A DNA stretch of 50,574 nt, the filler included, from Jimgerdemannia flammicorona (lineage: Eukaryota): the NCBI GenBank assembly GCA_003990765.1. It is 2 parts of 2 records of this genome, joined end to end, with 100 filler letters (N's around TTAATTAATTAA, not from the genome) between each part and the next. Parts side by side here need not be neighbours in the genome. Positions count along the whole stretch, not along the records: positions 1 to 25,238 come from RBNJ01000864.1; 1 more part is not named here. The stretch is one strand, 5' to 3'. Under the pieces are notes generated by a model. That model was given only the letters and a program-made list of their open reading frames with translations. It searched no databases and had not been told where the DNA came from. Position 1 is the stretch's first letter; every line of letters starts with the position of its first letter. Below, piece by piece: positions 3,575 to 49,192 of this stretch. Made by a program: the position numbers and the translations under genes.

Positions 3575-4717
3575 CTAAAATTTGCACTCTAAACCGTAAA
3601 GCTCGCCCACTCGAACGCGATCCCCTATGCTTGGGGAGCCCCTCATATATCTAGGTACATGTTCTCCCGTGCCGGGCTTGTCCTGGAGCGTCATTCTCCC
3701 GGACTTGGCAAACATATGGGCGGGAAACTGCATGATCGAGTCGATATCGTACACGCCGTAAGGTTTATAGTCATGGGAAATGCGGAACGCACACGCCAAC
3801 CCCAAACAATTATCGGATTCGCAACTATGATTTTTCGGGTGGAAGTCCAAAACGTTTTCACAATGGAACTCTTGGTGCTCGTTGCGGTCGGCTCGCAGTG
3901 TTTCGTGGTTCAGGCCCAGTACGTGACCGAACAAGTGCGTAGCATCGTCTTCGAAGCAGCCTTTGTTGCTCAAGCCCGGGGGTTTACAGTAAGACGGTTG
4001 CTGCAAATTCATATACAAAGGTTCAGTCGCCGAGTAACCGTAGGTGGCAATGCAATTGGCGCAGTTCATGGAGTCGATGGTCAGTTGGCCGGGAACTTCT
4101 TCACAGCAGACGCCCACTTCCTCGAACTGGAGGAACGAACTCTTCCGACGCCATCGTTCGATGGCCTTATCCACGTACTTTTGAACCTTGTTCTTGACCT
4201 CATGGGAACAGTACTTGTAAACGATCGTGGCGTTGGGCCACAAATTTTCCGGAGCGGGGTGCAGCGTTAAGCCGGCGCCATACGGCTTTGGGTAGACGCC
4301 GGCCTCGGGTGCGTATTCGGAGCAGGGGCACAGGTTGACGCCCAGCGGGACGTTGTCCGGGTTGATGATTCGTGCATACTTCTTGAAATTATGAAATTTG
4401 TCGAAGACAATGTCTCCATCGATGACAGTAAGATTTCCCGGGGTGACGTAGAAGGGCACACGTTCAAACCTAGAAGTGCGCCTGCGCGCAATGGTGGCCG
4501 CAATGGTGGTCGCAGGGTTGTTCGTAGGTTGAGGAGTAGCCGTAGGTTGGGGAGTCGTAGGATGGGGAACAGGAATATCAGCACCGGCCGAATAAGGCAC
4601 TACAACGGCATTAGTGGCGGCAGAGTGGGGCCTCTCATTGTCTTCATCAGCTTGTACCATCACCGCACGGAACATGACGACAAGGCTGATGATGCAGGCG
4701 AGGGAAGGTTTCTTCAT
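3575..4717 (-). CDS. Secreted astacin-family (peptidase M12A) metalloprotease homologue, probably catalytically inactive
   Basis: 380-aa intact single-exon ORF. It has an N-terminal hydrophobic signal, a Pro/Thr-rich linker, prodomain DGDI, WPNATIVY, zinc motif HLFGHVLGLNHETLRADR (canonical HExxHxxGxxHExxRxDR) and Met-turn YDIDSIMQF (canonical SIMHY). Confidence 0.9.
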   Translation of the reverse strand: MKKPSLACIISLVVMFRAVMVQADEDNERPHSAATNAVVVPYSAGADIPVPHPTTPQPTATPQPTNNPATTIAATIARRRTSRFERVPFYVTPGNLTVIDGDIVFDKFHNFKKYARIINPDNVPLGVNLCPCSEYAPEAGVYPKPYGAGLTLHPAPENLWPNATIVYKYCSHEVKNKVQKYVDKAIERWRRKSSFLQFEEVGVCCEEVPGQLTIDSMNCANCIATYGYSATEPLYMNLQQPSYCKPPGLSNKGCFEDDATHLFGHVLGLNHETLRADRNEHQEFHCENVLDFHPKNHSCESDNCLGLACAFRISHDYKPYGVYDIDSIMQFPAHMFAKSGRMTLQDKPGTGEHVPRYMRGSPSIGDRVRVGELYGLECKF

Positions 4718-14990: not shown

Positions 14991-15357
14991 AAAAGTGTGT
15001 ATAATGTGAATAGTAACTGAGAAAGATACTATTTATTATTTACTATATATCATAAATCAATATGAATAAATATACTTAAGAATAAAATTAATAGTAACTA
15101 TTTTAAAATAATATTTACTTATAAAAAGTTAGACAAATATATTAAAAAAAAAGACTGAGTATTGTGATAGTTGATCTAAATTTAATTATCAAACATATAT
15201 AGTATAGTATTATAGTGGATAGTTATCTAATCTTATAGATATAAAAAAATCATATAATTATAAAAAGCTTATACTTAATAATTTTAGAAAAATCTTATAA
15301 CTATAAGATAACTTATAGAAAAATAAGTTATAACTTAATTACTATATACATATATAA

Positions 15358-15833
15358 TGTGACAGTACAGCCAGATTTGGAAGAAGGAAATAGGGAATAG
15401 ACACTTGATTGCACCCATTCCCAAAGTAGTATAGCATTATAGTTAGCAGTCCTCGATTTCGACATTGTCTAACTTCTTAGACATTGTCTAAATTTTGGAC
15501 ATTATCCAAATCAGATACCCCGATTTAGTATAGCATTTAGACATTGTCCAAATGTTTCGACAAAGTCCAAATGACTCATTTATTACTTAACCACCTTCTC
15601 ATAGCCAGCAAACTTGTATAAATAACCCAGTATCTTCGAGTGAATAAACCTCAGATCGAAATAGTTCAAAGCAAAGAGATAGCAAAGGAACTAGTAAGCC
15701 TGCAGACAGATACACTTCGAACTCACCCACCCTCCCCTGCCACTTCAAGAGACTCTGCGAGAGTCAGAACAGTCAAGTTTTCAAGATACAGAAATCTGAC
15801 ATACTTTCAAGAGTAAGTGTCTGCTACGTTACA
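15358..15833 (+). repeat. 5' LTR of A1 (476 bp)
   Basis: TGTGAC...GTTACA termini, TATAAATA at ~15617 and AATAAA at ~15643. Near-identical to 21610-22084. Confidence 0.95.
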
Positions 15834-15947
15834 ACTTGGTGCCCATTGGCTGGTGATTCAAGATGAATCCCTCACTTTCAAGCTGAACAACAAACAACTG
15901 CCACTACCCGAACAACTATACAAACCGAGCCCCAATACCCAGACAAG

Positions 15948-18900
15948 ATGGATATGAGACCACCAGTATTCCATGGATATACCTCAGATGAATCAATCAT
16001 CACATTCATTGACGATTTCGAGCAGTATGCTGCCATAAGGACCCTGACAGCAGCACAGCAAGTAGCCCTCATGCCCTTCAGCCTACGAGGCCCTGCCAGA
16101 GCAGCATTCACAGCCGCAACCCATGCAGGAAATGATGCCGATGCTGTACTGATAGCACAGAAGACCTGGCTTCGAAATACATACTACACAGATGAGATCA
16201 AGCAAGCCCTGAAGGATCAGCTCAACACAACATGCCAAGGAATGAGCGAGGATCCAAACACATTCTATACCAGAATTCGATATCAGATAATCCTTGCAGA
16301 TTATGCTGCTGCTACCCGAGATCAAGTAGCCGAAGCAACCTTCATGAAAGGAGTCCATCCAGAAATAGCCATGGCCATCTGCTCATCACCAGTGATTCTG
16401 GATCTGCCACAGAGGGTCACCTATGCTCAGCGATACTGAACAGCCAGACACCCACAAGACCATACAATGGAGAGGGTCACAGGAGTCAGAATCGAGGCAC
16501 CCAAGGCAACCAGTGTGATCCCCACCACAATGATCAATTGAAACACACCTCAGCCAAAAGCTACAGAGCAGCAAAAGAATAGTGACCCTATGGAGGAACT
16601 CACCAAAAGATTTGCTGAAATAACTGCCCACCTAGGAGACGTGGTAAAGGAAATCCAAGGAAGAGATCGCCGCCCTGTTCAGAAGTTTGCCGCCACCTCG
16701 GACAAGAAGAAAGGTACCTGCTACAGCTGCAGAGAAGAAGGCCACTACTCCTATGAATGTATGAGTGAAACCAAATACAAGGCTCAACCAAGCAATGCCA
16801 CACGAAACAAGGAGCAGGCCAATACAATCACCTTTGAAGAAATTGGAGAATCTGATGAAGAAGAATGGGAGGCCTATTCTGCTCAGACCACTAAGAAGAA
16901 TGTTTACAAAGAACCCTACAAGAGACCGCCAGGAAGACCCAAGAAGAACCCGGTGGAAAGCAGATGGAAACTGCCACAGAAAGTCAAGCCGAAGAGATGG
17001 ACCAGGATATCGAGCTGGAGCAAGCAGTTCAAGATATCATCCGAGGAACCACTCCAGCCAGTGAAGGAGAAAAAGAAAAGAAGCTTCGTAAGACCAAGAC
17101 CTTCAAGTATGATATCTTCAAGGATCTCAGTCAACAAAAGGTCAATGCAACCTTTGGTCAGCTTGCAGAAATCCCAACATTCAGACAGCAAATGAGGTTT
17201 GGACTTGCCGAAACAACCAAGGAACAAGGATGGAAGATAACTGAGGCCAATAATGTTCAAGAGGACTCAGGAGAAGAAAGTGAGGACAATTGCAAAACCT
17301 CTGCCTATGCAACATGCCAAATTGAGGATTGAGTCTTTGAAGCCATCATTGATACAGGAGCAGGAGGATGTCTCCTCAGTAAGAAGGCAGCAGACCGCCT
17401 AGGTTGGGATGTAGAAGAAGCAACTAAGCTAGTATTCATCACAGCCGATAGCACAAGAGCCACACCTCTGGGAAAGATCCAAGATGTTCCCATCAAGATC
17501 AGAGGAGCAACAATTCCAGTAGATGTAATTGTAACCAATGCCACCAACTATGACATCCTCATCGGCAATCAATGGCTTCACAAAGCCAAGGCAGTAATCA
17601 ATCTCAATGCCCAGAAGATGCAAATTACCTACCGGGGACAAAAGATACGAATTCCCATCAACATCAACAAAGGAGTCCTGCCCGATATGGAGGAAGAAGA
17701 GAGCGAGCAAGAGGAAGCTTATATGGTAACTACCCCGAAGAAGAAGAAAGTCGGATGGATGAGTGAAGAAGAATGGTACAAGAAGATCACTGAAGGCTAT
17801 GCCCCACAAGGAGTCTGTCCTCATGGAATCAAGATATACTGTATAGAGCATGTCAATTATTGCTACCAGTGCACCATCGGAACCAAGAAGATCTACCAGG
17901 AAAGAAGCCAGAAAGCTCTCGAAAAACAGATCAGGGAAGAAGAGAAGGAGGAAGATGATGAACCACCAGCCCTCCTGGAGGACAGCAATGACAAAGAAGA
18001 AATCAAGGTCAAGATTCGAAAGATCCACCCTGATGTAGTCTTGCCAGAATACAAGTCAGAAAATGCAGCCAGAATGGACATCGCTACAGTAGAAGAAACT
18101 GTACTTGAACCCCAGACAACCACCCTACTCGCAACTGGACTGGAGATGACCATCCCAAAGGATCATATTGGGATTCTCAAGACAAGAAGCAGCCTGGCTA
18201 GAAGCGAAATTGCAATCAAAGGAGGAGTCATCGATTCAGACTATACTGGAGAAATTCTACTCATTGCTAGGAACCACAATCCTACAATTCCATTCCCAGT
18301 CAAGAAGAAGGACCGATTGGCACAGATGTTGATCTTCCCAATCATACAGCCAAGGATCATAGAAGTCAAGAATCTGGAGGAAACGAAAAGAGGAAAGAAA
18401 GGATTCGGATCTACAGGAAGAGGAGTATTCGCCAGCACCAAGATTACTGAACTCGAGCATAAGAAGGAGGAAAACATGAGCAAGCACAGTTATACCATTG
18501 GAGACGAATTCCCACTCAAGGAGGAACTCAAGAAAATACTCCACAAATTTGAGGATATCCTCGCCACAGATTTCAAGGATATCAAGAGAAAGACCCCACA
18601 CTACTATCACGAGGTAGATACTGGAGACACCGAACCAATTTACCAGAAGGCAAGACCTGTCCCACCAGCTTACTGAGAATGGCTCAGAGAAGAAATCAAG
18701 CAGATGGAAGAAGCCGGCATCATCAAAGAAGCCAGTAGCCCCTGGTCTTCACCAGTTGTACTAGCCCTGAAAAAAGGAAGCAAATCTGGAGAATTTGCCC
18801 CAAGGCTCTGTGTCGACTACAGAAAGCTCAATGTAGTCACCAAAAAGGATCGCCAACCACTGCCACTCATCAGCGACATTCTTATAACACTGGGAGACAA

Positions 18901-21125
18901 AGCACAGTACTACAGCACCTTGGACTTATACTCAGGATTCCACCAAATCGGACTCACAGAAATGGCAAGTGAAAAGTCAGCCTTCATCACCCCAGACGGA
19001 ACCTACATCTACCTATGAATGCCATTTGGAATGTGCAATACACCAGCAAGCTTTCAGCGAATGATGAACAAAATCTTCTGCTATGATATGGGAAGATGGA
19101 TGATGGTCTATGTCGATGATGTAATCATCTACAGCAAGACAGCCGAGGAACATCTGCAGCACATACAGCAGATAATGGAGAGACTAAGACAACATGGCCT
19201 TTACATCAAACCCAAGAAGTGCAAGTTTGCGGAAATCGAGATCTCCTATCTTGGCCATATCATCAATCGAGATGGAACACACACGGACCCCCTCAAGATA
19301 CAAGTAGTAGTAGCATACCCAAGGCCCACTACTGTCACAGAAGCCCAAGTCTTCATAGGACTTGCCTCCTACTATTGCAGATTCATTAGAGGATTCTCCA
19401 ACATCGCAGGCCCAATCTACAAACTCAACAAGAAGGATACCAAGTTCCAGTGGACTGGCATACAACAAAAAGCATTTGATGAACTCAAGGTCAGACTAAC
19501 TCAGGCACCCATCCTCAGACGACCCAATTGGACCCAAGAATTTATCCTTTAGACAGATGCAAGCGCACAGGGACTAGGAGCAGTCCTAGCTCAAAAAGAA
19601 GACAAAAAGGAGTATGTCATCGCATACCTCAGCTGTGGAACCCGAGGAGCTGAAAAAGAATACGAGTCCTATAAGTTGGAATGCCCCGCAGTCATCTGGG
19701 CTGTGGAAAAGTTCCACTACTATCTGGCTGGAAGACACTTTACTATCCAGACGGACCACTCAGCTCTCACCTGGCTACTGACAACTGGACAACCCAAGGG
19801 AATCTATGCCAGGTGGATAATGAAGTTACAAGCCTATGATGTAACTATCGTGCACCACCCTGGAAGAACAAATTCCAATGCAGATGCTCTCTCACGGACA
19901 CCTTGAACTGCTTCCAATCAACAAATCAATCACGAATAAGGAGCTCTACTACAGAATTATCACATACCTGGGACAGTGAAAGATGCCCCAACATCTGGAA
20001 GAATGGACACAAACGATTATCAACAGAACATGGAAACAATTCGAAACTGATGGAGAAACACTGAAGAAAGGAAAACTACTAGTCATACCAGAACACAAGA
20101 AGGAGCAAGCAATGAAATCAGTACATGAACTTGGCCATCTAGGAGGAACAAATACATACGACAAGGCAAGAAAAACAATATGGTGGCCAGGGATGGAGGA
20201 AGATATCAGACAATTCGTCAAGACCTGTGACAAATGCCAGAAACAGAAACAAGACCAATGAAATCAAGCCCCAGGATCAGCACACATAGAACCAGTACCA
20301 TTCGCCCACATTGCAATGGATGTAATCGGCCCCCTACCATTGACTTTGACTGGCAACTGATACATCATTGTCATCGTAGACCTTTTTACAAAGTGGATAG
20401 AAGCGGGACCCCTTATGGAAGCTAATACACAGTCAATCACCGACTTCTTTCACAAGGAAATCATCTGCTGATTCAAGACCCCAACACAAGTAACTACAGA
20501 TAGAGGAACCGAATTCATGAACCAGTTCTTCGAAGTTCTCTACAAGAAGTACAAGATCCAGCACATTCGGACCACAGCCTATTACCCTCAAGGAAATGGA
20601 CAAGTAGAAAGGACCAACAAGACCCTCAAGAATGTTATCGCCAAGATCTGTGATAGCTACAAGAACTGGGATCACTATCTACCAATAGCATTATCTGCTC
20701 TCTGGGATATCCGATCACAAAGTACCCACTTTACCCCTCGAGAAATGCTGTTCGGAGAAGAATGTTCTCAGGGAACCTTGTCATTCAATGGAGATGCTGT
20801 ATGGAAACATGTGGACATGGAAATACGGAGACTACACCAAATCAGGAAGAAGGCTGAGGATTACATAACCAAGGTGCAGACCCTACAATGGAGGAATGCA
20901 GAAAAGACCCACAAGCCCTTGGAGATTATCAAGATAGGAGACAAAGTCCTGGTGTATCGGAATATGGTAGAAGCTTCATGATCACGAAAACTGGAGCCCA
21001 AGTGGGAAGGACCTTACCTTGTGCAAGATATAAAAGGGACCACCTTTTGGCTACAAAAACCCTCAGGCACAATAATCCCCACCACCATTCACCAAAACCG
21101 ACTCAAGAAATATCATGACCAGTAA
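15948..21125 (+). pseudogene. gag-pol of A1, interrupted by stops and frameshifts
   Basis: Capsid-like gag, zinc knuckle CYSCREEGHYSYEC (~16719-16760), protease IIDTGA (17351), dUTPase (~18005-18420), RT YVDD (19109), RNase H TDAS...NADALSR, integrase HHCC, core TDRG...GQVER and C-terminal WEGPY. Most stops are explained by CGA>TGA, CAG>TAG or TGG>TGA. Confidence 0.95.
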
Positions 21126-21645
21126 CAAAAGTACCGCGATGGCACTCAAGATCACTAGTGCTGCCCAAAGAGCCATCGAAAGACAATGGCACACCACCGA
21201 GCCTCCAACCATAGAACCATTCTATGAGGATATTCAGAGTATTGTGCAGACTCATCTCTCTCGGATCTCGCACTTTAGAGCCTATCAATATCGGGCAGAA
21301 TTCCAAGAGTACTTCAAGCTTGGACAAGTGCTCAATCAGGATCCAGCAAAGACCAAGGAGGACTGGATTGCCGAGTGTCAACTCTCCCACTCATAGATCA
21401 CTGTTGCCAAAAGGATCCACAAGTTATTCCGAGAAGATGAAGCAGCAATAGACCACCTGAGAGGAGTAACCCCTACTGACTTCGAGAAAGTGAGAAGACA
21501 TCATTGGGAAACAGTTATGCAGCAAATCGCACAGTACAAGACCAGACTGTTGAAGCCTGGGAGTTTGAATAGATGCCTCAGGGACGAGACCATCCATTCA
21601 GGAGGAAGTTGTGATGGTACAGCCAGATTTGGAAGAAGGAAATAG
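21115..21645 (+). pseudogene. Accessory ORF3 of family A (~176 codons, one internal TAG at 21394), function unknown
   Basis: The ATG overlaps the integrase end in another frame, and the frame stays open through the PPT into the LTR if TAG is read as CAG. It is similar to 48365-48660 and to the B-family LTR ORF. Confidence 0.75.
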
Positions 21646-22084
21646 GGAATAGACACTTGATTGCACCCATTCCCAAAGTAGTATAGCATTATAGTTAGCA
21701 GTCCTCGATTTCGACATTGTCTAACTTCTTAGACATTGTCTAAATTTTGGATATTATCCAAATCGGATACCCGATTTAGTATAGCATTTAGACATTGTCC
21801 AAATGTTTCAACAAAGTCCAAATGACTCATTTATTACTTAGCCACCTTCTCATAGCCAGCAAACTTGTATAAATAACCCAGTATCTTTGAGTGAATAAAC
21901 CTCAGATCAAAATAGTTCAAAGCAAAGAGATAGCAAAGGAACTAGTAAGCCTGCGGGCAGATACACTTCGAACTCACCCACCCTCCCCTGCCACTTCAAG
22001 AGACTCTGCGAGAGTCAGAACAGTCAAGTTTTCAAGATACAGAAATCCGACGTACTTTCAAGAGTAAGCATCCGCTACGTTATA
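21610..22084 (+). repeat. 3' LTR of A1
   Basis: Direct repeat of 15358-15833 preceded by the PPT. Confidence 0.95.
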
Positions 22085-24077
22085 ATAACTAATAAACTTA
22101 TATAAACAACTCTAGTATCTAGAGTAAATAAATCTTAGATCAAAATAGTTTAAAGTAAAAACTAAGTAAGTTTATAGATAGATATACTTTAAACATACTC
22201 CAATACTTTGCTGAAAACTCTGAAGAGTTAAGAAGACTAAAAAACTAAAATAAAGAAATTTACTATACTTTTTAGATTAACTTAGTATTTATTAATTAGT
22301 AATTTAAGATAAATCTCTCACTTTTAAGTAAAATAATGAACAGCTATCACAACTCAAATATCTACTCAAATTAACTCAAGATATATTATAAAAATTATCA
22401 GAGATATATATCTATAAAATCTAAATATATATATCTAGATAATAAATTTACAATTATATTCTAGAGTACTAAGTATGATCTTATATTGATCTTGTAGTAT
22501 ATAATAGATATAACAGAATATCTCTAGATATATTTTATATATATATACAATTTTACTTCAGTACTATTTCTAAAGTTTAGATAATTCTACTTTAATAGAT
22601 TCTAGATTCTTTATATATTTTAATATAGTTCTTTAATAATATAATACAATATATAACAATAAACTATATAATAGACCACAAGATATAAAATAACAATAAA
22701 CTGCAAAATTTAAATGATAATGAATAGTAATAGACTATAAAGATAATAATAAACTATAATATTATAAGATATTAATAATTAGAAACAATAATAGATTATA
22801 GAACAAATTCAGTATCTAAAAAACTAAATGAAATCTTACTTAAATCCAACTGTCTAGTATTTCTAAGATGTCTAGTTTTAGTTCTTTAGCTATAATATTA
22901 TTCTGTAAATTTGTTCTAGCTATAATTACTTACTTCTGCAAAGTGCTAAGATTTAATTTCTTCTTATAAACTATATTTTGAATTTATTTCATCTACTTAT
23001 AATATCTGAGAGACTTATTTTTATCTTTAAATTTCTCAATTAGGCTATCTATATACAGGTGCTCTAGCTATATTTAATAATTGAAATGAAAATTATTATT
23101 TAAGTCTATTATTAAACTGATTGCAATCTAAACTAAAAAAATAATGAACTTATCAAGCTACAGATAAATAAAAGCTGAGATATTTAATGATATATCTTTA
23201 AATCAAGATTTCTCTCCAAACTATAATAACCAAAAAAATAGAGATAATATATAGAGAGAAGAAGGATTCTTAAGCTAGTGTTAGAATAATATAATTGTCT
23301 ACCTTTATTCAGATTATATATTAGTAGTATATAAATAAATCAGACATTTGAACTATTCTCTATAAGTGACTATAATACCTTCTATTTAAGATCTTTGATA
23401 TCTTTGAGAGATATATTATTTAGAAACTGAAAGTTAATATTCAAGAAAAATATGCTCAAGAAATTGAAATAACATTTCTTTGCTTTACTTTAAACTTATG
23501 ATATCTCTCTAGAAATCTAATATAAATATATAAAAAATAAATAAAAAAAAAAATTATTATTAGCAAAATGATAATTAGTATTACAAAATATATAGTTATT
23601 TGTAGAATAATTAAATTATTATAAAAATTTATAACTATTATTAAGAATAGCCTTATAGATCTCTTTTGTCACTAACAATAAAAGATATTATAGAGAAAAT
23701 CTTATTGCTAAAATCCTTCTATTATGTAATATCTGACCAGATATTTTTTAGAAAAATAATATTGTAAACTTAATATATAGTTCACTTCTACTGAGTATTA
23801 CTATATCTATGCTTCACAAGTATAGTATCAATTTTGATATTTTTACAGTATATATTATTACTAATTTCTGACTGCACAGTTGATCTATAAATAGATGCAG
23901 ATATAAAAATTAATATCTAAATATCAGATATTATACTAAAGCTCTTAGAGAATTATATTTACTTCCAAAAAACAGATATCTTAGTCATAAGATTAATATT
24001 TATTACTGAGACTTTTTATAGTTTTATAATATACTCTTATTACAATTATAGAGGAGACTCTTGATGAAATCTTTAAT

Positions 24078-24360
24078 CTGGACTTAAACAATATCATGGA
24101 CTTGAATAATGCAGTAGACTTAAATAATATAATAGACTTAAATGATATAGTAGACTTGAGTAGTATGATAAACTTAAATGATATAATAAAACTGAATAAT
24201 ATAATGAACTTGAACATTGTGATAGACTTAAATGATATGATAGACTTGAATAATATTGTAAACTTGAATAATATAGTAGTATTGAATAATATAGTAGACT
24301 TGAATAATATGATTATGAACTTAGACTTAAATGATATAGTTATGAACTTGAACTTAAATA
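24078..24360. repeat. Degenerate 18-bp tandem repeat (about 15 units, consensus near GACTTGAATAATATAGTA)
   Basis: Periodicity is visible directly and produces hexapeptide-repeat ORFs on both strands. Confidence 0.8.
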
Positions 24361-25238: not shown

Positions 25239-25338
25239 NNNNNNNNNNNNNNNNNNNNNNNNNNNNNNNNNNNNNNNNNNNNTTAATTAATTAANNNNNN
25301 NNNNNNNNNNNNNNNNNNNNNNNNNNNNNNNNNNNNNN
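25239..25338. other. Artificial contig spacer
   Basis: 44 N + TTAATTAATTAA (stop codons in all six frames) + 44 N, exactly 100 bp. Confidence 0.95.
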
Positions 25339-25545
25339 TTGAGGGAGGATGATGAGGTCATGGTGGCATGGTGGAGAGCGTGACATCGGTCAGATGCCAC
25401 TGCGGTATATGGAATGCAACCAACCCCGCCCCCGCCAAATAATAATGTCTAGGTACATCAAACAAATTCTTGAATAAACTTCTCCGCGCACCCAGAGGAT
25501 TCCAATAGTCCCCTCCACTCCACTAAAATATAGACAATTTCATAC

Positions 25546-27333
25546 CAGTTCCGCCCTCTTCAGCAGATCCCTCTCCTGCAACGGCGCGCGCGTGATTCCG
25601 ACATCGGCGCCGAGCTGACTCAGCAGGATGGTGTAGTTCTCGCCGTCCGAAACGTCCTTGCTGAAGTTGCTGACCCTGGGAACGGAAAATGAGTGTCGTA
25701 GTTAGGGAGGTGATTGGACGGAGATCCTCTAGGTAGGTAAGGCTACCCATCTCGCGAGGCACAATTTCAGGCAAAACAAGGTGCCGCGACGTTCTTCGTG
25801 TCACGCAAAAAAAGAAAAAAAGAAAAAGAAAAAAAAAAAAAAGAAAAGAAACACGTTGCACACACCTCCTCTGCCAATTCGCAGCCTTGAGGTGATAGTT
25901 GAACCACCTTAACAAAATCTGGTCGGGAGGCAGCCGGAGGAACTCGTCGAGGGTCTCGTCCTCGTCGAGGAGTCGGTAGAGCTCCGGGTGATGCTTGATG
26001 TCAATCTTTGAGAGGAGGCCGCGTTTGATGATTTGCCAAATAAGGCCGAGGATGAGATGCTCGCGGCCCTCCATGATATCGTTCGGCCCGATGTTGACGA
26101 CGGAGCAGCCAATGGCCTTGGCCGAGTTGATGACGATGTTGTTGTTCTCGATCATCTGGAACTGGTTGATCTTCTTGCCCGTGTTCAAAACCCGCTCGTC
26201 GATCGTGTCGGGGACCGCGTCGTTGATCAGTTTGCATAGGATGAGGCCGTCTGGCGGATGAGTGGGTGAGAGATTTCAATGATTGAATGCGAGGGAGAGA
26301 TTTTTATGTCTCAAACAACGGTATCCACATGCACACGATGCCGGTCATTCCCATTCCCCGACATCTTTGCTCTCCCATCATCCAACATACAGATCATAAA
26401 CCACCCAATGGTCCCAAACATGTACCTCTGCATTCATCAAACAGTTGCATTGTATTTGTGGGGATGGGCAGCTTCTTGCCAATGTCGCGGTCGCCGTCCA
26501 GCTGGGAGTTAATGTGATGGGTAAACTCAGTACGCTCGTCCTCATTGATGGTGTGCGAGGTGTTTTGGTTGGCACCCATCACCGTGATCTTGTGCTGGTG
26601 GACGTCGAAGGCACCCTTGTTGCGGCCCTCGCGGAGCTTAGAGGCGAGCTGTTTAGTATGAGAATGAGATAGTTTGGATGAGAAAATGTTTCGGATATTA
26701 GGTATTGCCGGATTTCTTTCCGGATACTGTTGTAAGAAGCCGGTTTGGCAACAAGAACCCTCATATATAGTTCATGACCTATTTAATCATCACCGATCCT
26801 CGGCATTACTCTAGATATTCCATATCAGATGATCTTGCTCATTCCATGCATATATACCCTGGGTTCACCCTTCCGTTTATCTAAAGTAAAGTACGTTTCC
26901 TCACCTCAACAAATTCATCAACGTCAATTTTGCCGGATGAGTTGGTGTTGACCTGCTTAAGCGTGGCGCGGATCTCGTCATAGCTCTCGCTCAGACGAGC
27001 TTCTTGGCACGCTTTGATGAGCTCGCTCTGTTCCAGGTAGCCGTCGGCGTCCATGTCACATTGCCTGCATGAATAGAGTAGCCGGCTCAGTCGGTAGCAG
27101 AGAGGTTGGGGGGGGGAGGGGAAGGGGGTGGAAAGGATCTCGCCAGTAGCCCCCCCCCCCCCCCCTCCTCTCTCTCCTTTGAGGCTAGGGAAGCCATGCG
27201 AAAGTATCGGCAGGACGCAAGCGTCACTAGGTTAGGAAAGGCATACGTACTCGAACTGGGCGATCAGGCCATTGATATCGTTGACAGTGAATGCTGGGTA
27301 TCTCTTCTGAAGCTGAAACACGTTGACTGGCAT
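25546..27333 (-). CDS. SAC6: Fimbrin/plastin, 5' part. Exons 27333-27251, 27064-26905, 26648-26426, 26250-25866, 25675-25546; the rest is lost at the contig end
   Basis: GT-AG introns with consistent phases. The translation gives EF-hands (DMDADGYLE, NTNSSGKIDVDEF), then CH domains DGLILCKLINDAVPDTIDERVLN, SAKAIGCSVVNIG, HLILGLIWQII, ILLRWFNYHLK and NFSKDVSDGENYTILL. Confidence 0.95.
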
Positions 27334-30122: not shown

Positions 30123-31665
30123 GTCTAGACTTTCAGAAATTTATATATTAATAGTCCTTAGGCTATAAAAGTAGGCAAATTTGTCTGCAAAAATATGTAT
30201 ATATTTTTTTTTTTATTTTATGAACTCTATGTCCTGTGGATTTTTATTGGAAGAGAACCTAGACTATATAGGCCAAAACCCTCCCTCACCACCCATCAAG
30301 CACTGCCTCCCCATTAATCTAGGCTAGCTATTGTTCAGCAGCTCAACCATACCAGACACAGCAGGGCCTATATTAGCCCATACCTCATTCTGTACACCAT
30401 GCTCTCCCTATCACCAGGGGAAACCCAGCTATATGTCAATGACTGAAAGTACATACCCAAGAACCCAACATATATATGTATAAGACTATGCCCGAGCTGA
30501 ATAGAATAGCTCCTGCCACCCCAAAGAGAATGACAGGTAAAGAAAAAACCCTCATCAAAGTACAACACAGTAGGTAGAGCCTGATTCTCTCAGTCAAGAT
30601 GAGTAGAGGACTTACATATGAGACAGGAGGAGACCTCCAATACTCCACTACTCAAGCCTGTGGGCCTTGATCACGTTGCCATATCAGCTCTCGGTTCTAG
30701 TTGAGTGCAGCCAAGATGCCTGAAATAGGTAGCCTCGGGCCCCCCGACCCTCTCAGATAACCAGGGCCCAATCCCACAAATCGCCAAAAGAAGCCGAGAG
30801 TGATACCTATTACCTAACTGCACTGCACCAATCAAAAGGCCCCACTGAAGCAGCACCTGCCTCAGCCCTGATGACCACCCCCAGCCTAGCACCCTACTGG
30901 TTCACTGTTATCGCCCTTCCTCCTATCTGTAATAGCCATCTCCCCTCTCAACCTGACAACACCTGAAAATCAGTTACCTATATCAGAACTGTACTTGCTG
31001 GAAAGCTCGCCAAAGCCAGAGGGCCCCACTACAGGCACCGAGGACCTGCAAGTAACCTATACTGAGCACTTGATGCCCAAGGTCAGCTGACTCCCTACGT
31101 AGCCTGAGATATACTGAGACAACTCCATGTTGGCAATGGCAAAAGGAAAAAGGTGCTACATTAAAATGGGTATACCCCAGATGCAGCTGAAGGCACCAGA
31201 ATCTGCAAAAAAGTGGAGGAAGCATCGATCTGACATTGATAAAGGGGCAACTCATCACCATTGCCCTCCTTCCACCATACCCCTGCAGGCACAGCAAACC
31301 AACCCAAGGTAGAGGGGGTAATATTAGGGGAAAGGGGACTCAGAAGATCGCCTACCAAATCTTGTGACCAGTAAGGTAGCAGAGAAAGGAGCTGTGCAAA
31401 AAAATATATATATATATATATATTGTAACAGTGACTCCAGAATGATAATATCAGCACAGGAGACAGTCTTTCTTTGCAAGCCACCAGATTGGAACACAAA
31501 AAGATTATATAGCATATGAGATGAGCAATGATGACCAACTGTAAGTCATTATGACCACAGTACAAGTATCCTGAAGAATATAAAAGAAGGATCAAGGAAC
31601 TGCAGTAGCAGTAACTAACAAGAACCACTAATTCCAAATTAGCTCAAAGACTTACCATAAACAAA

Positions 31666-32895
31666 ATACCTGCTGCCCACCAAACCTCAAGGTCAAGGAA
31701 CCACCAAGGTATCTCAGTTGAAGAAAGAATGTTCTAAGACATCAGAAGAGCCATAAGGACCTGCTCAAGAAGGACTCCTAGTATATATCAACCTGGGTAC
31801 TAGAGACCCCTATCACTTTATTCTCTACTACTATGAAATGGAAACAAGGATCACCATTGCTATCGAATGCCTCCAAATGTAGCAGGAGTATGAAATAGGA
31901 AACCTCCTCTGCCGGGAGTTCCCACAGGCCAGCACTCAAGAGCTAAAAGATGCTACTTCCATAGATATATATGAAACAAGGACAACTAAGAAGATCCATC
32001 AGATCTTCAGGAATAGTTGATCCCCAACTTGGAATATGTTAGAGTCTCAGATTTCAGAGATCTGTCATCCCACCATATCAATGCACTAGAAGCCAGAGTG
32101 GCTACAGAAGCCCAGTCCACTATTACTCTCAATAATAATGAAGTAGAAGACTTCTGGCTAGTGCTCTCAAATGAGTCGAATCAATTCAAATTAAATTGAA
32201 TTGAGGGTTAAATAAGTTGAATCGAATTGGGGATTTTTCAATTCAAATCAATTTGAATCAAATCAAAAGTCAAATCAAATTGAGGGTCTGATTCAAACCC
32301 TAATTTTCAAAATGCAATAACTCACCATAAACTCATCCAAATCTAACATACTTTAGCTTATTAGAATCACATTAATATAGTGAATCTAACAAGTGAAAAT
32401 ATGTTAAATTCAGATAAGTTTTCATCGAGTTATTATATTTTGAAAATTAAGGTTCAAATTGAATTAGACCTTTGATTCGATTCGAATTGAATTGAATTGG
32501 ACCCTTGATTCGATCAAATTGAATCAAGTTTGGGCCAAATTCGATTTGATTTGATTTGTTGGGAGCACTACTTCTGGTACCCTATCCTTCAGGACAACCC
32601 AGACCAATTCCTGTAAGGGTTGATCTCAGTATTCCAAGGCCCAAGCATCTAGGTTAGATCTCCCCAAGACCCCACATTTGTCTCCTATTTTGTGGAAGAG
32701 AACCTCATAGACTAGAGAGCTCCAGATCTTGTTCCCAATTTCTCCACTACCAAAAGTGATGACATCATCAGCAATGATGTCATCCTGTATGATATTGAAG
32801 CACGTGAAAATGATGAATTCATGAATCTCATCTCCTTCAGTAATGATGATGATGATGAGGATGAAGCCCCCATGGTCCTGAACTTTCTGCTCTAA
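31666..32895 (+). pseudogene. LTR-encoded accessory ORF, copy in the B1 5' LTR (ATG>ATA, MITE insertion, small indels)
   Basis: Collinear with 39313-40125. Confidence 0.75.
32159..32570. mobile_element. hAT-type MITE (412 bp) inserted in the B1 5' LTR
   Basis: TIR TAGTGCTCTCAA...TTGGGAGCACTA and 8-bp TSD CTTCTGGC/CTTCTGGT. The empty site is seen in the other B LTRs. Subterminal TCGAAT/TCAAAT arrays are present. Confidence 0.92.
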
Positions 32896-33494
32896 GGTCT
32901 TTGTTACACTAAATAATGCCAGCACCAGTATTCTCATGTAATATTAGATAATGCCAGCACTAGCATTCTGAGGTAATGTGAAATTGTTCCAGCATCGGTA
33001 TTCTGATATAACACTAAATTATACCAGTATCCTTAACCTGTACAACCATCAGTGCTGACTCTGAAACTTAGTAGTTTTAGTTATTAGAATTTATATTTAG
33101 CTTTATATATTAGCAACCATTGAATTATATTTTGTATAAATACTCCTCTTATTTCCTCTGAAATAAAGTCAGTCTTTTCAGTGTAATATACACAATCTAT
33201 TACAAGCAATCTAAGAGATAACAAGACAGTTAAAGATAAGAAGTTTGAGGACTATAAGACCTTGAGAAGGCACTCCAATAAGAACTTGCTTATAACAAAA
33301 CTTGAGTTAGTCTAAGAGATATATCTTGAAGAGAATCTGGCATATTTGAAGAACTCAGTGACTACTACATGACAACTTGGTGCCCATTGGCTGGTGATTC
33401 AAGATGAATCCCTCACTTTCAAGCTAAAAAACAAACAACCCCCACAACAACTACTCTGACTATAAGAGTCACCTCTGCAAGAATTTAAGATAAG

Positions 33495-38706: not shown

Positions 38707-39312
38707 AAGAAGCAAAATGTGATGACCACCCATGAGGTTCTAGTCCACAAATTGTAACAGTATGTCCTGTGACCAGCAGGCTATCTGTCTGGACCATTCT
38801 CTAAGGGATACAGCACTGGCAACTACTCATCCATGAGACTTTTGAAGTCAGAGGAGTTTGAACCATCAACTGATTGATCAAGATCAGAATCAGGCCCTTG
38901 CTCTATATGAAGGGAGTGACTCTTCACCATCACACCAAAATACAAAAAGAAGATGCCAGCCCATAAACACCACTTTTCGACCCCTTGCCAGAGGTTATGG
39001 GATCAGCAAATTTTTCAAAACTGGACTAATGAATAAGGATGCTCAGGAAGATCCTTATTCAGGAGGAAGATGTAACAGTGATCCCAGAATGATGATATTA
39101 GCACAGGAGACAGCCTTTTCTTGCAAGTCACTAGATTGGAACACAAGAAGATTATATGACATATGAGATGAGTAATGATGACCAACTGTGAGTCATTGTG
39201 ACCACAGTACAAACATTCTGAAGAATATAAAAGAAGGATCAAGGAACCACAGTAGCAGCAACCAACAAGAATCACCAATCTCAAATTAGCTCAAAGACTT
39301 ACCACAAATAAA

Positions 39313-40125
39313 ATGTCTGCTGCCCACTAAACCTCAAGGTCAAGGAACTACCAAGATATCTCAGTTGAAGAAAGGATGTTCTAAGACATCAGAAGAGCCA
39401 TGAGGACCTGCTCAAGAAGGACTCCTAGTGTCAACCTGGGTACTGGAGACCCCTATCACTTTATTCTCTACTACTATGAAATGGAAACAAGGATCACCAT
39501 TGCTATCAAATGCCTCCAAATGTAGTAGGAGTATGAAATAGGAAACCTCCTCTGCTGAGAGTTCCCACAGGCCAGTACTCAAGAGCTACAAGATACCACT
39601 TCTATAGATATATGTAAAACAAGGACAGCTAAGAAGATCCATCAGATCTTCAGGCATATACTATAGTCAATCTCCAACTTGGAGTATGTTAGAGTCTCAG
39701 ATTTCAGAGACCTATCATCCCACTGTATCAATGCACTAGAAGCCAGGATGACTATAGAAGTCCAGTCCACTATCACCCTCAATAGTGATGAAGTAGAAGA
39801 CTTCTAACACCCTATCCTCCAGGACAACTCAGATCAATTCCTACAAGGGTTGATCTCAGTATTCCAAGGCCCAAGCATCCGGGTTAGATCTCCCCAAGAC
39901 CTCACATTTGTCCCCTATTTTGTAGAAGAGAACCTCATAGACTGGAGAGCTCCAGATCTTGTTTCTGATTTCTCTGCTACTGAATGTGATGATGTTATTG
40001 GCAATGACATTATTCCACATAATATCGAAGTATGCAAAAATGATGAATTCATAGATCTCATCTCCTTCAGTGATAATGATGATGACAAGGATGAAACCCC
40101 CATGGTCCTGAACTTTCTGCTCTAA
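39313..40125 (+). pseudogene. LTR-encoded accessory ORF (270 codons), copy in the B1 3' LTR
   Basis: ATG to TAA in one frame with no frameshift. Internal stops are sense codons in sister copies. TATAAAAG lies about 85 nt upstream. Confidence 0.82.
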
Positions 40126-41049
40126 GTTCTTTGTTATACTAAATAATGCCAGCACCAGTATTCTCATATAATACTGGATAATGCCAATACTGGCATTCTG
40201 AGGTGATGCGAAATTATTCCAGCACTGGTATTCTGATGTGATACTAAATTATACCAGTATCCTTAACCTGTACAATCATCAGTGCCGACCCTGGAACTTA
40301 GTAGTTTTAGTTATTGGAATTTATATTTAGCTTTATATCTTAGCAACCATTGAATTATATTTTGTATAAATACTCCTCTTATTTCCTCTAAAATAAAGTC
40401 AGTCTTTTTAGTACAATATACACAATCTCTTGCAAGCAATCTAAGAGATAACAAGACAGTTAAAAATAAGAAGTTTGAGGACTATAAGACCTTGGGAAGG
40501 CACTCCAATAAGAACTTGCTTATAACAAAACTTGAGTTAGTCTAAGAGATATACCTTGAAGAGAATCTGGCATATTTGAAGAACTCAGTAACCACTATAT
40601 GATAATATATATAATTTTTATTTAAAAATATTTTTTTACTAATAAATATAAAGTTAAAAAAAAATTTAAAAATTTTTGCAAGTAAATTTACTTATAAAAA
40701 TATATAGTCTATTAGATAGAAAATAGCTTAGTATATGTCTATTGATATTCAATAGTTATAAAAATAGCTGCAGTAATCTTATTCTTAGTTTGTTCTTAGT
40801 ATTATTATTAGTTATTTATATTATAGACAAATTATCTATATAATATTTGAGAATATTTATACTTATCTTGTCAAGAGTATAACTATTCTTTAGAAATTCT
40901 ATTGGAATTTTCATTATACTATATATTTATATCAGATTACTACTTCTTCTATATTTGGTAAAAGATTGTCTTCTTTTTTTCAAGTAGTATATATGAATAC
41001 TCTTAAGAGAATACTAATTGATATACTGATTCTGATTAGCTCTAATTCT

Positions 41050-41639: not shown

Positions 41640-44600
41640 TATAATGGTGACCCCAGTATAGGAGACAGTCTTTCCTTATAAGCCATCAGATCAGAGCACA
41701 AGAAGATCATATGGTATATGAGATGAGCAATGATGACTAACTGTGAGTTATTGTGACCACAGTTCAGATATCTTGAGAAATATAAAAGAAGGATCAAGAA
41801 ACCACAGTAGTAGCAACCAACAAGACCCACTAATCCCAAAATAGCTCAAAGACTTACTATAAACAAAATGCCTACTGCTCACCAAACCTTGAGGTCAAGG
41901 AACTACCAAGGCATCTTAGTTGAAGAAAGGATGTTCCAAGACATCAAAAGAGCTATGAGGATCTACTCAAAAAGGACTCCTAGTGTCAACCTGGGTACTA
42001 GTGATCCTTACTATTATATTCTCTATTACTGTAAAATGGAAACAAGGATCACCATTGCTACCAAATGCCTCCAAATATGGCAGGAGTATAAAATAGAAAA
42101 TCTCCTCTACCAGGAGTTCCCACAGGCCAGCCCCCAAGAGTTATAAGATACCACTTCCATGGATATATGTGAAGCAAGGATAGCTAAGAAGATCCATCAG
42201 ATCTTCAGGTATATACTATGATCAATCCCCAACTTAGAGTATATTAGAGTCTCAGATTTCAGAGATCTATCATCCTACCATATCAATGCACTAGAAACCA
42301 GGGTAGCTATAGAAGCCCAGTTCACTATCACTCTCAATAGTGATGAAGTAGAAGACTTCTGGCATCCTATCCTCCAGAACAACCCAGACCAATTTCTACA
42401 AGGATTGATCTCAGTATTCTAAGGTCCAAGCATCCAAGTTAGACCTCCCCAAGACCCCACATTTGTCTCCTATTTTGTAGAAGAAAACCTCATAGACTGG
42501 AGAGCTCCAGACCTCCTTTTTGCTGCCATCAAATGTAATGATATCATCAGTGATGATGTCATCCCACACAACATTGAAGCATGTGAAACATGCAATGATG
42601 ACAAATTCACAGATCTCATCTCCTTCAGTGATGATGAGGATAAAGCCCCTATGGTCTTGAACATTCTGCTCTGAAGTTCTTTGGTTATACTGAGCTATGC
42701 CAGCATCGATATTGTGATGTAATACTGAGTTATACCAGTACTGGCATTCTGATATAATACTGAATTATTCTAGCACCATTTTCCTGTATTACCAGAATTA
42801 TATCAGCATCCTGAACCTGTACAACCATCAGTGCTGATCCTAAAACTTAGCAGTTTTTCCTGTTCTGGCATTTTATTTTAGTTATTGGAATTTATATTTA
42901 GCTTTATATCTTAGCAACTATTGAATTATATTTTGTATAAATACTTCTCTTATTTCCTCTAAAATAAAGTCAGTCTATTCAGTCTATTCAGTACAATATA
43001 CACACTTTCTTACAAGCAATCTAAGAGATAACAAGATAGTTAAAGATAAGAAGTTTGAGGACTATAAGACCTTGGAAAGGCACTCCAATAAGAACTTGAG
43101 TTAGTCTAAGAGATATATCTTAAAGAGAATCTGGTATATTTGAAGAACTTAGTGACTACTACATACATAACAACTTAACACCCATTGGCTGGTGATTTAA
43201 GATGAATCTCTCACTTTCAAGCTAAAAAATAAACAACCTCCATAATAACTACTCTGACTACAAAAGTCACCTCTGTAAGAATTCAAGATAAGATGGAAAT
43301 ATGTCCTCCCATATTCTATAGATATACTACTGAAGAGTCAATCCTGACCTTTATTGAAGACTTTGAACAATTCACTACCATACAAACTCTTAGTGTGGAT
43401 ACATAATTGGCCCTTCTATCAGTCAGTCTCAGAGGACCTGCTAGAGACAAGTTCAATGCAATCACTATTGCTGATAATAGTACAGCCAAACTTGCCAACA
43501 TAAAGATCTTTCTCAGAACAATATTCTATACTGAAGAGATTAAGCAAGCTCTCAAGGATCAACTCAACACTATCTGTCAGAGACTTAGTGAAGATTCCAA
43601 CTTATTCTATATCTGAATCTACCACTAGATTGTCTTGGCTGACTATGATAATGCCCTCAAGGAACAAATAGTGGATTCAACCTTTCTTAAAGAAGTTCAC
43701 CCTGAAATTGCCCTAGCAATCTGGTCTACTCCAGCTGCACTGATCCTTGATTAGAAAGTGATATTTGCACAGAGATATTGGACTGCCAGACACTCTACCA
43801 AACCCTCAATAGAGAAAATAACTGGCATCAAGATAGAGCCATCAAAGCTAACTAGTATCATATCTGCTACAGTTGTAAACAGATAACCAACCCCATCTAC
43901 CCCCAAGGTAGCCAAAGCTGACCCAGTGGAGGAACTTGCTAAGCAGTTCACTGAGATGACTATACATCTTGGTGATATTGTTAGAGAAGTCCAAAGTGCC
44001 AACAGGAGACCAGTATAGAGATTTGTAGCTGCTATAGAAGAATATAATATCACATGCTTCAGATATGGAGAAGAAGACCACTATGCAAAGAATTGTATGA
44101 CCAAAACAAGATGCAAAGCCCAACCAAGCAATACTAGCAGAACCAGAGAACAAACTAATGCAGTAGTCATCAAGGAGATTAGTGATACTGATGAAGAATA
44201 CTATGAGGAGCTTGAATTCTACTCTGCTACTGAAGGTACCAGAACTCAGTCTAAGCCCTATGATAAGAAGAGCAATAGCAAGTCAGTTGGAAGACCAAAA
44301 AAGACCCCAGCTATTACTATTCAAAGCAAGACTCAACTCAAGGAGATTGATCAAGATATGGAGTTAGATAAAGCTGCCTGCCAAATCATTGAAGGCACTA
44401 CTTCAGTCTCTGGAGAAAGTGAAAGCAAGAAGAAATAGAAGCTGTGTAAGACTAAGATCCACCAGTATGATATCTACAAAGATCTTAAAGAACAGAAGGT
44501 CAATGCTACTTTTGAACAGCTAGCCAAAATCCCTGCCTTCAGACAGCAGTTGAGAGTAGGACTTGAAACTACTTCTAAGAATTAAGAGTACAAGATTGTA

Positions 44601-46754: not shown

Positions 46755-47352
46755 GCCTGAAGATCTGATGAATCTTCTTAACTATTCTTATTTTACATAC
46801 ATCTATGAGAGTGATATCTTATATCTCTTAGAGACTAGCCTGAGGGAATTCCTGGTAGAGAAGATTTCCTATTTTATATTTTTGTCACATCTAGAGATAT
46901 TTAGTAGCAATGGTAATCCTTGTTTCTATTTTATAGTAGTAGAGAATATAATGATAAGAGTCACTAGTATACTCAGATTGAGACTAGAAGTTCTTCTTAT
47001 ATGAGTCCTTATGACTCTTCTGATGTCTTGGAATATTCTTTCCTAGACTGAGAGGTCTTGATAGTTCCTAGACCTTAAGGTTTGGTAAATGGCAGGCATT
47101 TTATTTGTGGTAAGTCTTTTGAATTATTTCTGTAAGTCTTGTTTGAGTTGCTACTACTGTGGTTTCTTGATCTTTCTTTTATATTTCTTGAGATATCTGT
47201 CTTATGATCATAATGACTCATAGTTGGTCATCATTACTCATCTTATAGCCTGGGTGAGTTATGCCATATGATCTTCTTATACTCTGATCTGGTGACTTAT
47301 AAAGAAAGACTGTCTTCTATAATAATGTTATCATTTTGAAATCACCATTATA
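46755..47352 (-). mobile_element. Inverted 5' fragment (~600 bp) of a family-B LTR
   Basis: Reverse complement matches the B LTR from its start to KKIHQIFR of the LTR ORF. Confidence 0.88.
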
Positions 47353-49192
47353 CCAAATATAAAAAGGAGTAAGTAATGAAATCAGTATATAAACTTAGCT
47401 ATCTATAAGAAATAAATATATATTAAAGTAAAAAGAATAATATGATGGCCAGAAATAGAGAAAGATATTAGATAATTTATCAAAACCTATAATAAATATC
47501 AGAAATAAAAATAAGACAACTCTGAGATCAGTACATATAACTAGCACTATTTGATAATATTGTAATGAATATAATTAGCCCTCTACTCTTAACTTTGGCT
47601 GACCAACTAATATATTATTATTATTATAGATATTTTTATAAAATAGATAGAAGTAAAACTACTCAAAGAAGTCAATATATAGTTAATTGCTGATTTCTTT
47701 TATAAAGAAATTATCTGCTGTTTCAATACTTCAATACAAGTAACTACAGACAGAGGAATAGAATTTGTAAATCAGTTCTTTAAGGTTCTTTATAAGAAGT
47801 ATAAGATTCAGTATATTTGGACTACAGTCTATCACTCTTAAGAAAATAGATAAATAAAAAAGACCAATAAGACTCTTAAGAATATTATTATTAAGATCTA
47901 TGATAACTATAAAAACTAGAACCAGTATCTGTCAATATATAGTATTATCTATTCTCTGAAATATCTAATTACAAAGTATCTATTTTATCTCTTAAGAAAT
48001 ATTGTTTAGAGAAGAAAGTTCTCAAGAAATTCTATCATTTAATAGAGATACTATATGGAAATATATAGATATAGAGATATGGAGACTATATCGAATTAGA
48101 AAGGAGGTCAAGAATTATATAACTAAGATATAGATTCTATAATAGAATAATATAGAAAAGATTTATAAGCTTTTAGAGATTATTAAAATAAGAGACAAAG
48201 TTCTGCTATATTAGAATATAGTAGAAGCTTTATGGTCATAAAAACTGAAGCCTAAGTAGAAAGGGTCTTATCTTATATAAAATATAAAAGAAACTACCTT
48301 TTGGCTATAAAAACTCTCAGATATAATTAGCTTTCTACCATTTACTGAAACTGACTTAAGAAGTTCTATCAGAACTAGACTGAGTTTCAAGAATACTTCA
48401 AGTTTGGATAGCTACTGAATTTATAGTTAAAAATGAGAAAAGAAGACTAGATCAGAGAGTATCAGCTCTCTTATACTCAGATTACTATTACTAAATAAGT
48501 ATATAAGCTATTTAAGATTATAAGCCAGCTCTAATACATTTCTAAGGAGTAGTCTCAGAAGACTTCAGATATATTAAGAGATACTATTGAGAAAATATAA
48601 TAATACAAATCACATAATATAAGAAGATACAACTTATAGAAGCTTAGGAGTTTGAGTGAATAAGATGTTTTAGGAATAAATTACCTATTTAGAAAGAAGT
48701 TATGATAGTTGATCTGAATTAAAAATATAAATCAAAAAAATAGATATTTGATCATAGTATCTGAATTCAATTTCCAAATATAGTATAGTTTTATAAATAG
48801 TAATTATTCTATCAAATATAGAAATTTTAACAAATATTAGAATTTTATAAATATCAAGATTTAACAGATGTTAAATTTTGATAATTATTGAAATCTTATA
48901 GATATTAAGGATCCATACTTATAAAAAGTAACTCATAAGAAATATAGTCATAACTTAGCCATCTTATAGCTAGTAAACTTATATAAATATTCTCAGTATC
49001 TAGAGTAAATAAACCTCAGATCAAAATAGTTCAAAGCAAAGAGAAAGTAAAAGAACTGATAAGTCTATAGATAAATATACTTCAAACTCACCTATTCCTA
49101 TATCCTAAGAACTCTACAGAGTTAAAGAAGATCAAGTTTTCAAGATACAGAAATCTGACACACTTCTAAGATTAGATATCTACTATATTATA
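47353..49192 (+). mobile_element. Old family-A-like element, 3' part (copy A2): integrase, ORF3 remnant, 3' LTR 48701-49192
   Basis: Collinear with A1 from about 20088 to 22084, with massive C>T/G>A erosion. Decayed PPT AGAAAGAAGT. Confidence 0.88.

Follow-up and report, generated by a model that had tools for sequence, protein, structure and literature searches.

A third open reading frame in a Ty3/Gypsy retrotransposon of Jimgerdemannia flammicorona and its probable homologue within the U3 region of a sister family

Extra genes are known in long terminal repeat (LTR) retrotransposons, few of them, to our knowledge, with a known function, and protein genes that lie inside the LTR itself are known to us mainly from vertebrate retroviruses. 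In mouse mammary tumour virus (MMTV) the sag gene is an open reading frame (ORF) in the unique 3′ (U3) region of the LTR, and the lentiviral nef gene is an ORF that spans the polypurine tract (PPT) and U3. This study concerns a window of 50,574 nucleotides (nt) of DNA, filler included, from the fungus J. flammicorona (assembly GCA_003990765.1; two parts joined end to end, with positions 1 to 25,238 coming from RBNJ01000864.1), in which self-comparison and reading of the element ends delimited LTR retrotransposons of two families, A and B, together with fragments. Family A carries a third ORF (ORF3) between the integrase gene and the PPT, and with a probability of roughly four in five we regard ORF3 as a real accessory gene that was under selection and shares homology with a gene located in the U3 of family B. 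As in the case of MMTV sag and lentiviral nef, the accessory gene of family B lies at the 3′ end of the element, in U3, and is duplicated together with the LTR. Unlike sag and nef, which belong to vertebrate retroviruses and encode unrelated proteins, it resides in a fungal host and has a homologue in a sister family that lies wholly upstream of the PPT.

Plant LTR retrotransposons are known to carry additional sense ORFs in the interval from pol to the 3′ LTR, and in the portion of that account covered here these ORFs are mostly env-like (PMC7264820). ORF3 resembles these ORFs in lying in sense between the integrase gene and the 3′ LTR in all three A-type copies, whereas it differs from those treated in that portion in being fungal, in having no hydrophobic segment, in belonging to no named family and in having a homologue inside an LTR. 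Varied ORF3s that are shared between retroelement types have been described in the LTR retrotransposons of bdelloid rotifers (PMC5408684). As far as the passages covered extend, the rotifer and fungal systems have in common Gypsy-like elements that bear a dUTPase, third ORFs that are specific to a family and the occurrence of the same ORF type in different elements, the last of which demonstrates modular exchange. The rotifer ORF3s in these passages are env-like proteins, GDSL esterases or DEDDy exonucleases with recognizable domains, and an LTR-internal position is mentioned there for none of them. A search of the literature at the level of titles and abstracts returned no description of the present protein family (A and B, and the further family D introduced below) or of an LTR-borne gene in fungal retrotransposons.

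ORF3 of the window starts with an ATG at 21115-17, which is 9 nt upstream of the integrase stop codon TAA at 21124-26, and the overlap with this stop that had been claimed from inspection alone is thus confirmed. The original prediction extended the ORF from 21115 to 21645; its start stands, whereas its end does not. The intact relatives of ORF3 end in QTVEAWEFE, and the window contains this ending in the next frame, followed by a stop codon at 21570-72, so that the gene corresponds to 21115-21572; the false tail to 21645 results from a 4-nt gap near 21541 relative to a near-intact A-type metagenome locus (L001). The three conserved blocks that had been quoted for family A (FQEYFKLGQVL, 21 positions, ITVAKRIHKLF, 6 positions and IDHLRGVTPTDFEKV) are present from 21301 onward, in frame with the ATG at 21115. 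The first spacer has the length given, but it had been read as open and is interrupted by an in-frame TAG at 21394-96. The true stop codon of ORF3 is located 23 nt before the PPT, and the gene does not overlap the LTR. A genuine accessory gene is present at 21115-21572 in the form of a decayed copy.

A word-index search returned 23 candidates, eight of which are relatives of ORF3 with E values of 1.7e-71 to 2.4e-38. Intact forms of 153 amino acids (aa) with the same start and end are found in the database proteins P0004 and P0020 and at 5795-6256 of L001, which is the sole locus obtained from a metagenome scan with the family A alignment; scans of viral contigs with the A, B and D alignments gave no confirmed locus. 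Comparison of the window copy with L001 over 141 codons gave a ratio of nonsynonymous to synonymous change (pN/pS) of 0.204/0.777 = 0.26, whereas the two off frames gave 1.16 and 1.75; the values for gag-pol and for the C-terminal part of the integrase are 0.23 and 0.17, respectively. ORF3 has thus been kept under purifying selection, as had been proposed. In all three A-type loci (window A, an A-like remnant and L001) ORF3 lies in sense between the integrase gene and the PPT, upstream of the 3′ LTR. In L001 the ATG of ORF3 is 41 nt before the integrase stop and its own stop codon is 27 nt before an identical PPT, which is followed by the LTR.

Both families show the features of Ty3/Gypsy elements, with direct LTRs that have TG..CA ends, a primer-binding site (PBS) and a PPT. 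Analysis of L001 with Pfam revealed zf-CCHC, aspartyl protease, dUTPase, RVT_1 and RT_RNaseH domains in one ORF and Integrase_H2C2 and rve domains in a separate ORF that follows it, which is the order gag, protease, reverse transcriptase, RNase H and integrase. The window copy of family A, the proteins of which are 65-82% identical to those of L001 (tblastn), contains several in-frame stops and at least one frameshift in its gag-pol and integrase regions. In L001 the integrase ATG (4516) precedes the end of the gag-pol ORF (4619) by 104 nt, a single in-frame stop interrupts the integrase ORF at 5074-76, and the start of the 3′ LTR (6390-6479) contains tandem copies of a unit of ~20 nt (GATGTAGAGATCTTAGCA...) that the family A LTR of the window lacks.

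The family B gene is located in U3, because it falls between the LTR start and the TATA motif TTGTATAAATA, which families A and B share and which occurs in five of five full LTRs at 220-243 nt before the LTR end. In the 3′ LTR the gene (39313-40125) starts 242 nt past the LTR start and ends 236 nt before this motif. Its position inside U3 means that a copy is present in every LTR, and the gene is indeed found in all four B-type LTR copies. ORF3 itself, with its stop upstream of the PPT, is not LTR-borne. The U3 of family B is ~1035 nt longer than that of family A, which is about the length of the gene plus its flanks, and the DNA of the A and B LTRs is significantly similar only at the termini and at the TATA motif. 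A TATA-like sequence, ATATAAAAG, occurs ~80 nt upstream of the first ATG in four of four copies, as a motif match only. The family B gene is real: a search returned 60 candidates, six of which are relatives with E values of 3.6e-103 to 8.5e-36, and the intact proteins, of 215-271 aa, all end in LNFLL. The copies in the window are decayed, with five internal in-frame stops in the translated part (39385-40125) of the copy in the 3′ LTR and three in-frame stops without a frameshift in the copy (~41868-42674) of a third B-type LTR. The amino-acid string that had been quoted for family B turned out to be a composite, since none of the three full LTR copies matches it exactly and each has in-frame stops or a frameshift. 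An insertion of ~415 nt (32156-32569) lies within the LTR gene of the family B 5′ LTR and was acquired after integration, because the 3′ LTR of that element lacks it.

Focusing on the proteins, the conserved blocks of A and B have equal spacing (35 and 24 residues), as had been noticed by eye, and comparison of the window copies using BLASTP gave 29.3 bits with an E value of 2e-5 and 24% identity over 78 aa. At the DNA level the ORF3 region and the B LTR show no similarity (best blastn E value of 2.7), again in agreement with the initial observation. Profile-profile alignment of A with B using hhalign scored 38.4 at a probability of 71%. A third family, D, was found via the database protein P0026 and comprises 11 proteins among 38 candidates, each ~165 aa long and ending in a short acidic tail; its known members are all database proteins. 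Family D aligns with A from end to end (hhalign score of 79.7, probability of 97.8%), and the combined A+D profile aligns with B with a score of 44.5, a probability of 87% and an E value of 3.7e-6. A hidden Markov model (HMM) built from D alone matches five of five A proteins (6.6e-18 to 2.2e-9) and four of five B proteins (2.9e-7 to 2.1e-5), the fifth, which is without its N-terminal half, giving 0.022. The pairwise BLASTP identities of D are 22-33% to A and 16-35% to B, the latter over shorter stretches. Judged by these alignments, family D bridges families A and B.

The proteins of A, D and B align collinearly from the N-terminus over ~130 residues, a core that is longer than the three blocks on which the proposed homology had been based. 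Within this core an N-terminal helix is followed by an [FW]Q.Y..G block, an A.(K/R)(I/V)(H/Y).(L/I)F block and a DF helix, and the signature common to the three families can be written as [FW]Q.Y..G..(L/M), A.(K/R)(I/V)(H/Y).(L/I)F(R/K) and a DF-containing helix. In the family B protein the N-terminal ~130 residues are homologous to ORF3, whereas an acidic C-terminal extension of ~120 residues is specific to B. ORF3 thus appears to belong to an unnamed superfamily of at least three branches: A (153 aa), D (~165 aa) and B (215-271 aa). The core is neutral to basic in charge and the C-terminal parts are acidic, with a net charge of -11 in D and of -20 to -24 in B. No membrane segment was detected in seven of seven proteins of the three families (largest 19-residue Kyte-Doolittle mean of 0.19-0.74), as had been stated for ORF3, and the ORF3 protein is not env-like, because the hydrophobic segment is absent by this measure. 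No Pfam family was above threshold for 11 proteins of A, B and D, a profile search of the PDB gave a best E value of only 0.38, and the best ESM Atlas score of 0.86 was under the level of 0.9 used for a lead.

The internal regions of A and B align over 5.4 kb at 67% DNA identity, and the PBS and leader are identical, so that A and B are sister families. They also share the PPT 13-mer ATTCAGGAGGAAG, which lies directly before the TGT of the LTR start, is also found in L001 and occurs within the window only at 21596 and 39057. The original prediction held that the gene had moved between the internal region and U3. It is true that one gene lies before and the other after the same PPT, but a simple displacement does not fit. 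Between A and B the accessory core shows only about 20-24% identity, whereas comparison of L001 with window B gives 49-60% for Gag, 58-64% for Pol and 59-67% for integrase, and within the A type ORF3 (67%) diverges about as much as Gag (65%); that a single orthologue simply crossed the PPT is unlikely because the core is far more diverged than Gag, Pol and integrase. A relic PPT would be expected downstream of the family B gene if an upstream PPT had simply taken over, and none was found there. The end of the family B spacer, which separates the integrase stop from the PPT, aligns with the last codons of ORF3, the segment that follows, the PPT and the LTR start (blastn, 65.5% identity over 87 nt, E value of 3e-4), which suggests that a resident ORF3 was present in B before the U3 gene. 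This former internal ORF3 depends on one 87-nt alignment that spans the constrained PPT and LTR start. The spacer was rejected as a recognizable ORF3, with hmmsearch E values of 2.2 or above and with five stops in the 115 codons of the only frame that joins an ATG to the conserved end. It is more likely that U3 received a diverged member of the family and that the resident ORF3 decayed, or that the gene diverged very fast once it had moved and acquired its acidic extension.

It is also possible, if on balance doubtful, that the proteins are homologous and that no move took place within one lineage, with members of an older family having been captured independently from other retroelements or host genes, between integrase and the PPT in A (and perhaps D) and in U3 in B. 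The gap between the identity of the accessory core and that of Gag, Pol and integrase, set beside an ORF3 that within the A type diverges about like Gag, would be accounted for in this way, and D is about equally distant from A and B. The ORF3 types that unrelated retroelements of bdelloid rotifers have in common, in the part of that work covered (PMC5408684), set a precedent. However, no cellular member of the superfamily, outside elements, was identified, the members in the databases all being short stand-alone ORFs, and the end of the family B spacer suggests a prior resident ORF3. Since the spacer suggests that an ORF3 was in place before the U3 gene, independent capture shades into the explanation preferred here, namely installation of a diverged family member in U3.

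An improbable alternative is that the similarity between ORF3 and the family B gene is due to chance and that the two encode unrelated small helical proteins. The comparison with shuffled controls that the original prediction had proposed was carried out by shuffling columns, and the score of 44.5 compares with at most 23.8 in 239 of 240 shuffles. None of 120 shuffles of A+D reached it (mean of 13.7, standard deviation of 2.6, maximum of 22.5), which places it 11.8 standard deviations above them; of 120 shuffles of B, 119 gave at most 23.8 and one exceeded it, with 135.9 over 27 columns at 15% identity, and was regarded as an artefact of hhalign. A reversed B control gave 17.1. In a whole-window test on 510 six-frame chunks, an A+D HMM built without any sequence of the window found, after the A copies, B gene copies at E values of 1.1e-5 and 1.3e-4, with the best unrelated chunk at 0.25, and reciprocally the B HMM matched ORF3 at 2.8e-4 while no unrelated chunk did better than 3.1; these matches are three to four orders of magnitude better than the unrelated background. 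The intact protein P0004 retrieves all four B copies by tblastn, at E values of 0.002 to 1.4. The rise of the hhalign score from 38.4 to 44.5 on the addition of the independent family D, the matches of the D-only profile to both A and B and the collinear alignment likewise argue against chance.

Several observations weigh against the homology of two selected genes. An exhaustive search of 1.84 billion representatives with the family A profile gave five proteins at E values of 0.001 or below, comprising two A members, one A fragment, P0025 and P0026 (5.3e-5), and the B proteins are absent at this threshold, as would be expected from chance similarity. The link between A and B is visible only in small search spaces and in profile-profile comparison. 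The hhalign probability for B tops out at 87%, D alone aligns with B with a score of 33.1 and a probability of only 42%, the two most decayed B copies give only an E value of 0.38 with the A+D profile, identity between the two proteins amounts to only 18-25%, and the pair was chosen by eye out of many ORFs. The structure models are of low confidence: that of A, from an alignment of 20 sequences, is all-helical with a mean predicted local distance difference test (pLDDT) score of 57.0 and a predicted template-modelling (pTM) score of 0.48, and that of B, from eight sequences, has a mean pLDDT of 33.7. In each the core is predicted as all-helical, with a similar order of helices, and both models are too uncertain for superposition or a fold search. 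For the family B gene, comparison of two decayed copies in the window gave a pN/pS of 0.36 in frame and of 0.63 and 0.70 in the off frames, which weakly suggests purifying selection. Taken with the controls above, the homology of ORF3 and the family B LTR gene is well supported, although not beyond doubt. P0025 (455 aa, with repeats of ~76 aa; E value of 8.7e-7 against the A profile from six weak stretches) was dismissed as an artefact of its repeats, since 33 unrelated Pfam families are likewise "matched" by it, 24 of the 25 listed being without any individually significant stretch.

That ORF3 is an accidental open frame in an untranslated 3′ region of the element and not a gene, as the stop and frameshift of the window copy and the absence of a Pfam family might suggest, is hardly credible in view of the intact 153-aa forms, the start and end of which are conserved among two database proteins and a locus from a metagenome, the in-frame pN/pS at the level of gag-pol with much higher values out of frame, and the 11 members of the related family D.

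Two modes of expression can be proposed. In family A, ribosomes would read ORF3 at the 3′ end of the element RNA, either through re-initiation coupled to the stop codon of the integrase gene, with which ORF3 overlaps, or on a spliced or subgenomic RNA, possibilities that are suggested by the overlap of the ORF3 start with the integrase gene in both the window and L001. The family B gene may be a short transcription unit of the LTR, because it is far from the upstream ORFs and has its own TATA-like box; transcription would start from this box and the transcript would end at the poly(A) site of the LTR. An ORF3 in the internal region may have existed in the ancestor of family B and have disappeared once a diverged paralogue had entered U3, the probable route of entry being recombination, or template switching among RNAs packaged together. 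In the protein, the helical and mildly basic core could bind a component of the element or nucleic acid, and the acidic tail, which contains aromatic residues, could recruit a host factor. A role of the accessory protein as an adaptor or regulator serving its element is a guess that we consider rather unlikely to prove right. In Caenorhabditis elegans, CERV, a protein of the LTR retrotransposon Cer1, is needed for nuclear export of the genomic RNA (PMC10309623). As described in the part of that report covered, it is a non-env accessory protein serving the RNA biology of its own element, and it may, purely as a hypothesis, be a functional analogue.

The system comprises one unnamed, apparently selected protein family in two placements, in closely related fungal elements with the same PPT, PBS and promoter landmarks, and the two placements constitute a natural experiment on the acquisition, exchange and expression of retroelement accessory genes. 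A, D and B provide a defined protein family for testing roles in retrotransposition or in countering host silencing. Only tentatively can it be suggested that the superfamily is modular relative to the PPT, being either internal or in U3, that the U3 form is a self-contained LTR unit and that solo LTRs could express the regulator; since the gene is LTR-borne, scattered solo LTRs may remain coding units. If this were true, the modular U3 unit would be a fungal parallel to the origin of nef- and sag-type genes and would offer a ready route to host domestication.

The features of the two families in the window are collected in Table 1.

Table 1. Positions of the family A and family B features along the window
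Feature	Position	Strand	Remarks
Family A LTR retrotransposon, Ty3/Gypsy with dUTPase	15358-22085	+	477-nt LTRs, 96.4% identical
Family A 5′ LTR	15358..15834	+	TGT..ACA ends; 96.4% identity to 21610-22085 over 477 nt
TATA-like TTGTATAAATA in family A 5′ LTR	15614	+	motif search
PBS-like TGGTGCCCATTGG, after family A 5′ LTR	15837-15849	+	sequence read
Family A gag, protease, dUTPase, reverse transcriptase, RNase H and integrase, decayed	15949..21126	+	ORF list, tblastn with L001 proteins
ORF3, family A, 153 codons, dead copy	21115..21572	+	
Integrase stop TAA, family A	21124-26	+	
Tail of the ORF as first predicted, 24 codons, outside the gene	21573..21645	+	frameshift read-through
Family A PPT, ATTCAGGAGGAAG plus T	21596..21609	+	adjoins LTR start
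Family A 3′ LTR	21610..22085	+	TATA-like motif at 21865
Family B LTR retrotransposon	31424-40605	+	LTRs ~1.5 kb
Family B 5′ LTR	31424..33373	+	gene copy ~31666-32892 has insertion and frameshift
Family B spacer, integrase stop (38704-06) to PPT, 350 nt	38707..39056	+	
Family B PPT	39057..39070	+	13-mer identical to family A
Family B 3′ LTR, 1535 nt	39071..40605	+	TATA motif common with A at 40362
TATA-like ATATAAAAG in family B 3′ LTR	39225-39233	+	
Family B LTR (U3) gene, decayed copy	39313..40125	+	
Third B-type LTR, the 5′ LTR of a second, truncated B element	41654..43164	+	
Inverted B-type LTR fragment	46755..47361	-	first ~115 codons of the LTR gene (47099-46756)
A-like fragment, heavily mutated	47350-49195		contains ORF3 remnant
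A-like ORF3 remnant	48361..48656	+	directly after A-like integrase end; first ~55 codons missing

Further traces and neighbouring genes were noted in the window. Positions 2-180 hold an inverted fragment of the family A LTR region that is ~94% identical to 15350-15528 and 21610-21779, and this is probably a truncated solo LTR or a further A copy that leaves the window. An 18-nt tandem repeat in at least 11 copies occupies 24063-24331 of an AT-rich spacer and gives rise to a long low-complexity ORF on the minus strand. The ~6 kb between 9000 and 15000 show a strong excess of C over G (GC skew of -0.33 to -0.58), with open frames on the plus strand that are rich in Pro, Ser, Thr and Leu. On the minus strand, 3575-4732 is an open frame of 385 aa with an N-terminal hydrophobic stretch and, by eye, a zincin-like H..GH..G..HE motif that lacks the Glu usually found after its first His; judged from these motifs, its product may be an inactive secreted metalloprotease-like protein. 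A multi-exon fimbrin/plastin-like gene, recognized by eye from EF-hand and calponin-homology-like sequence, lies on the minus strand at 25523-27231 and is adjoined by runs of N at 25239-25282 and 25295-25338.

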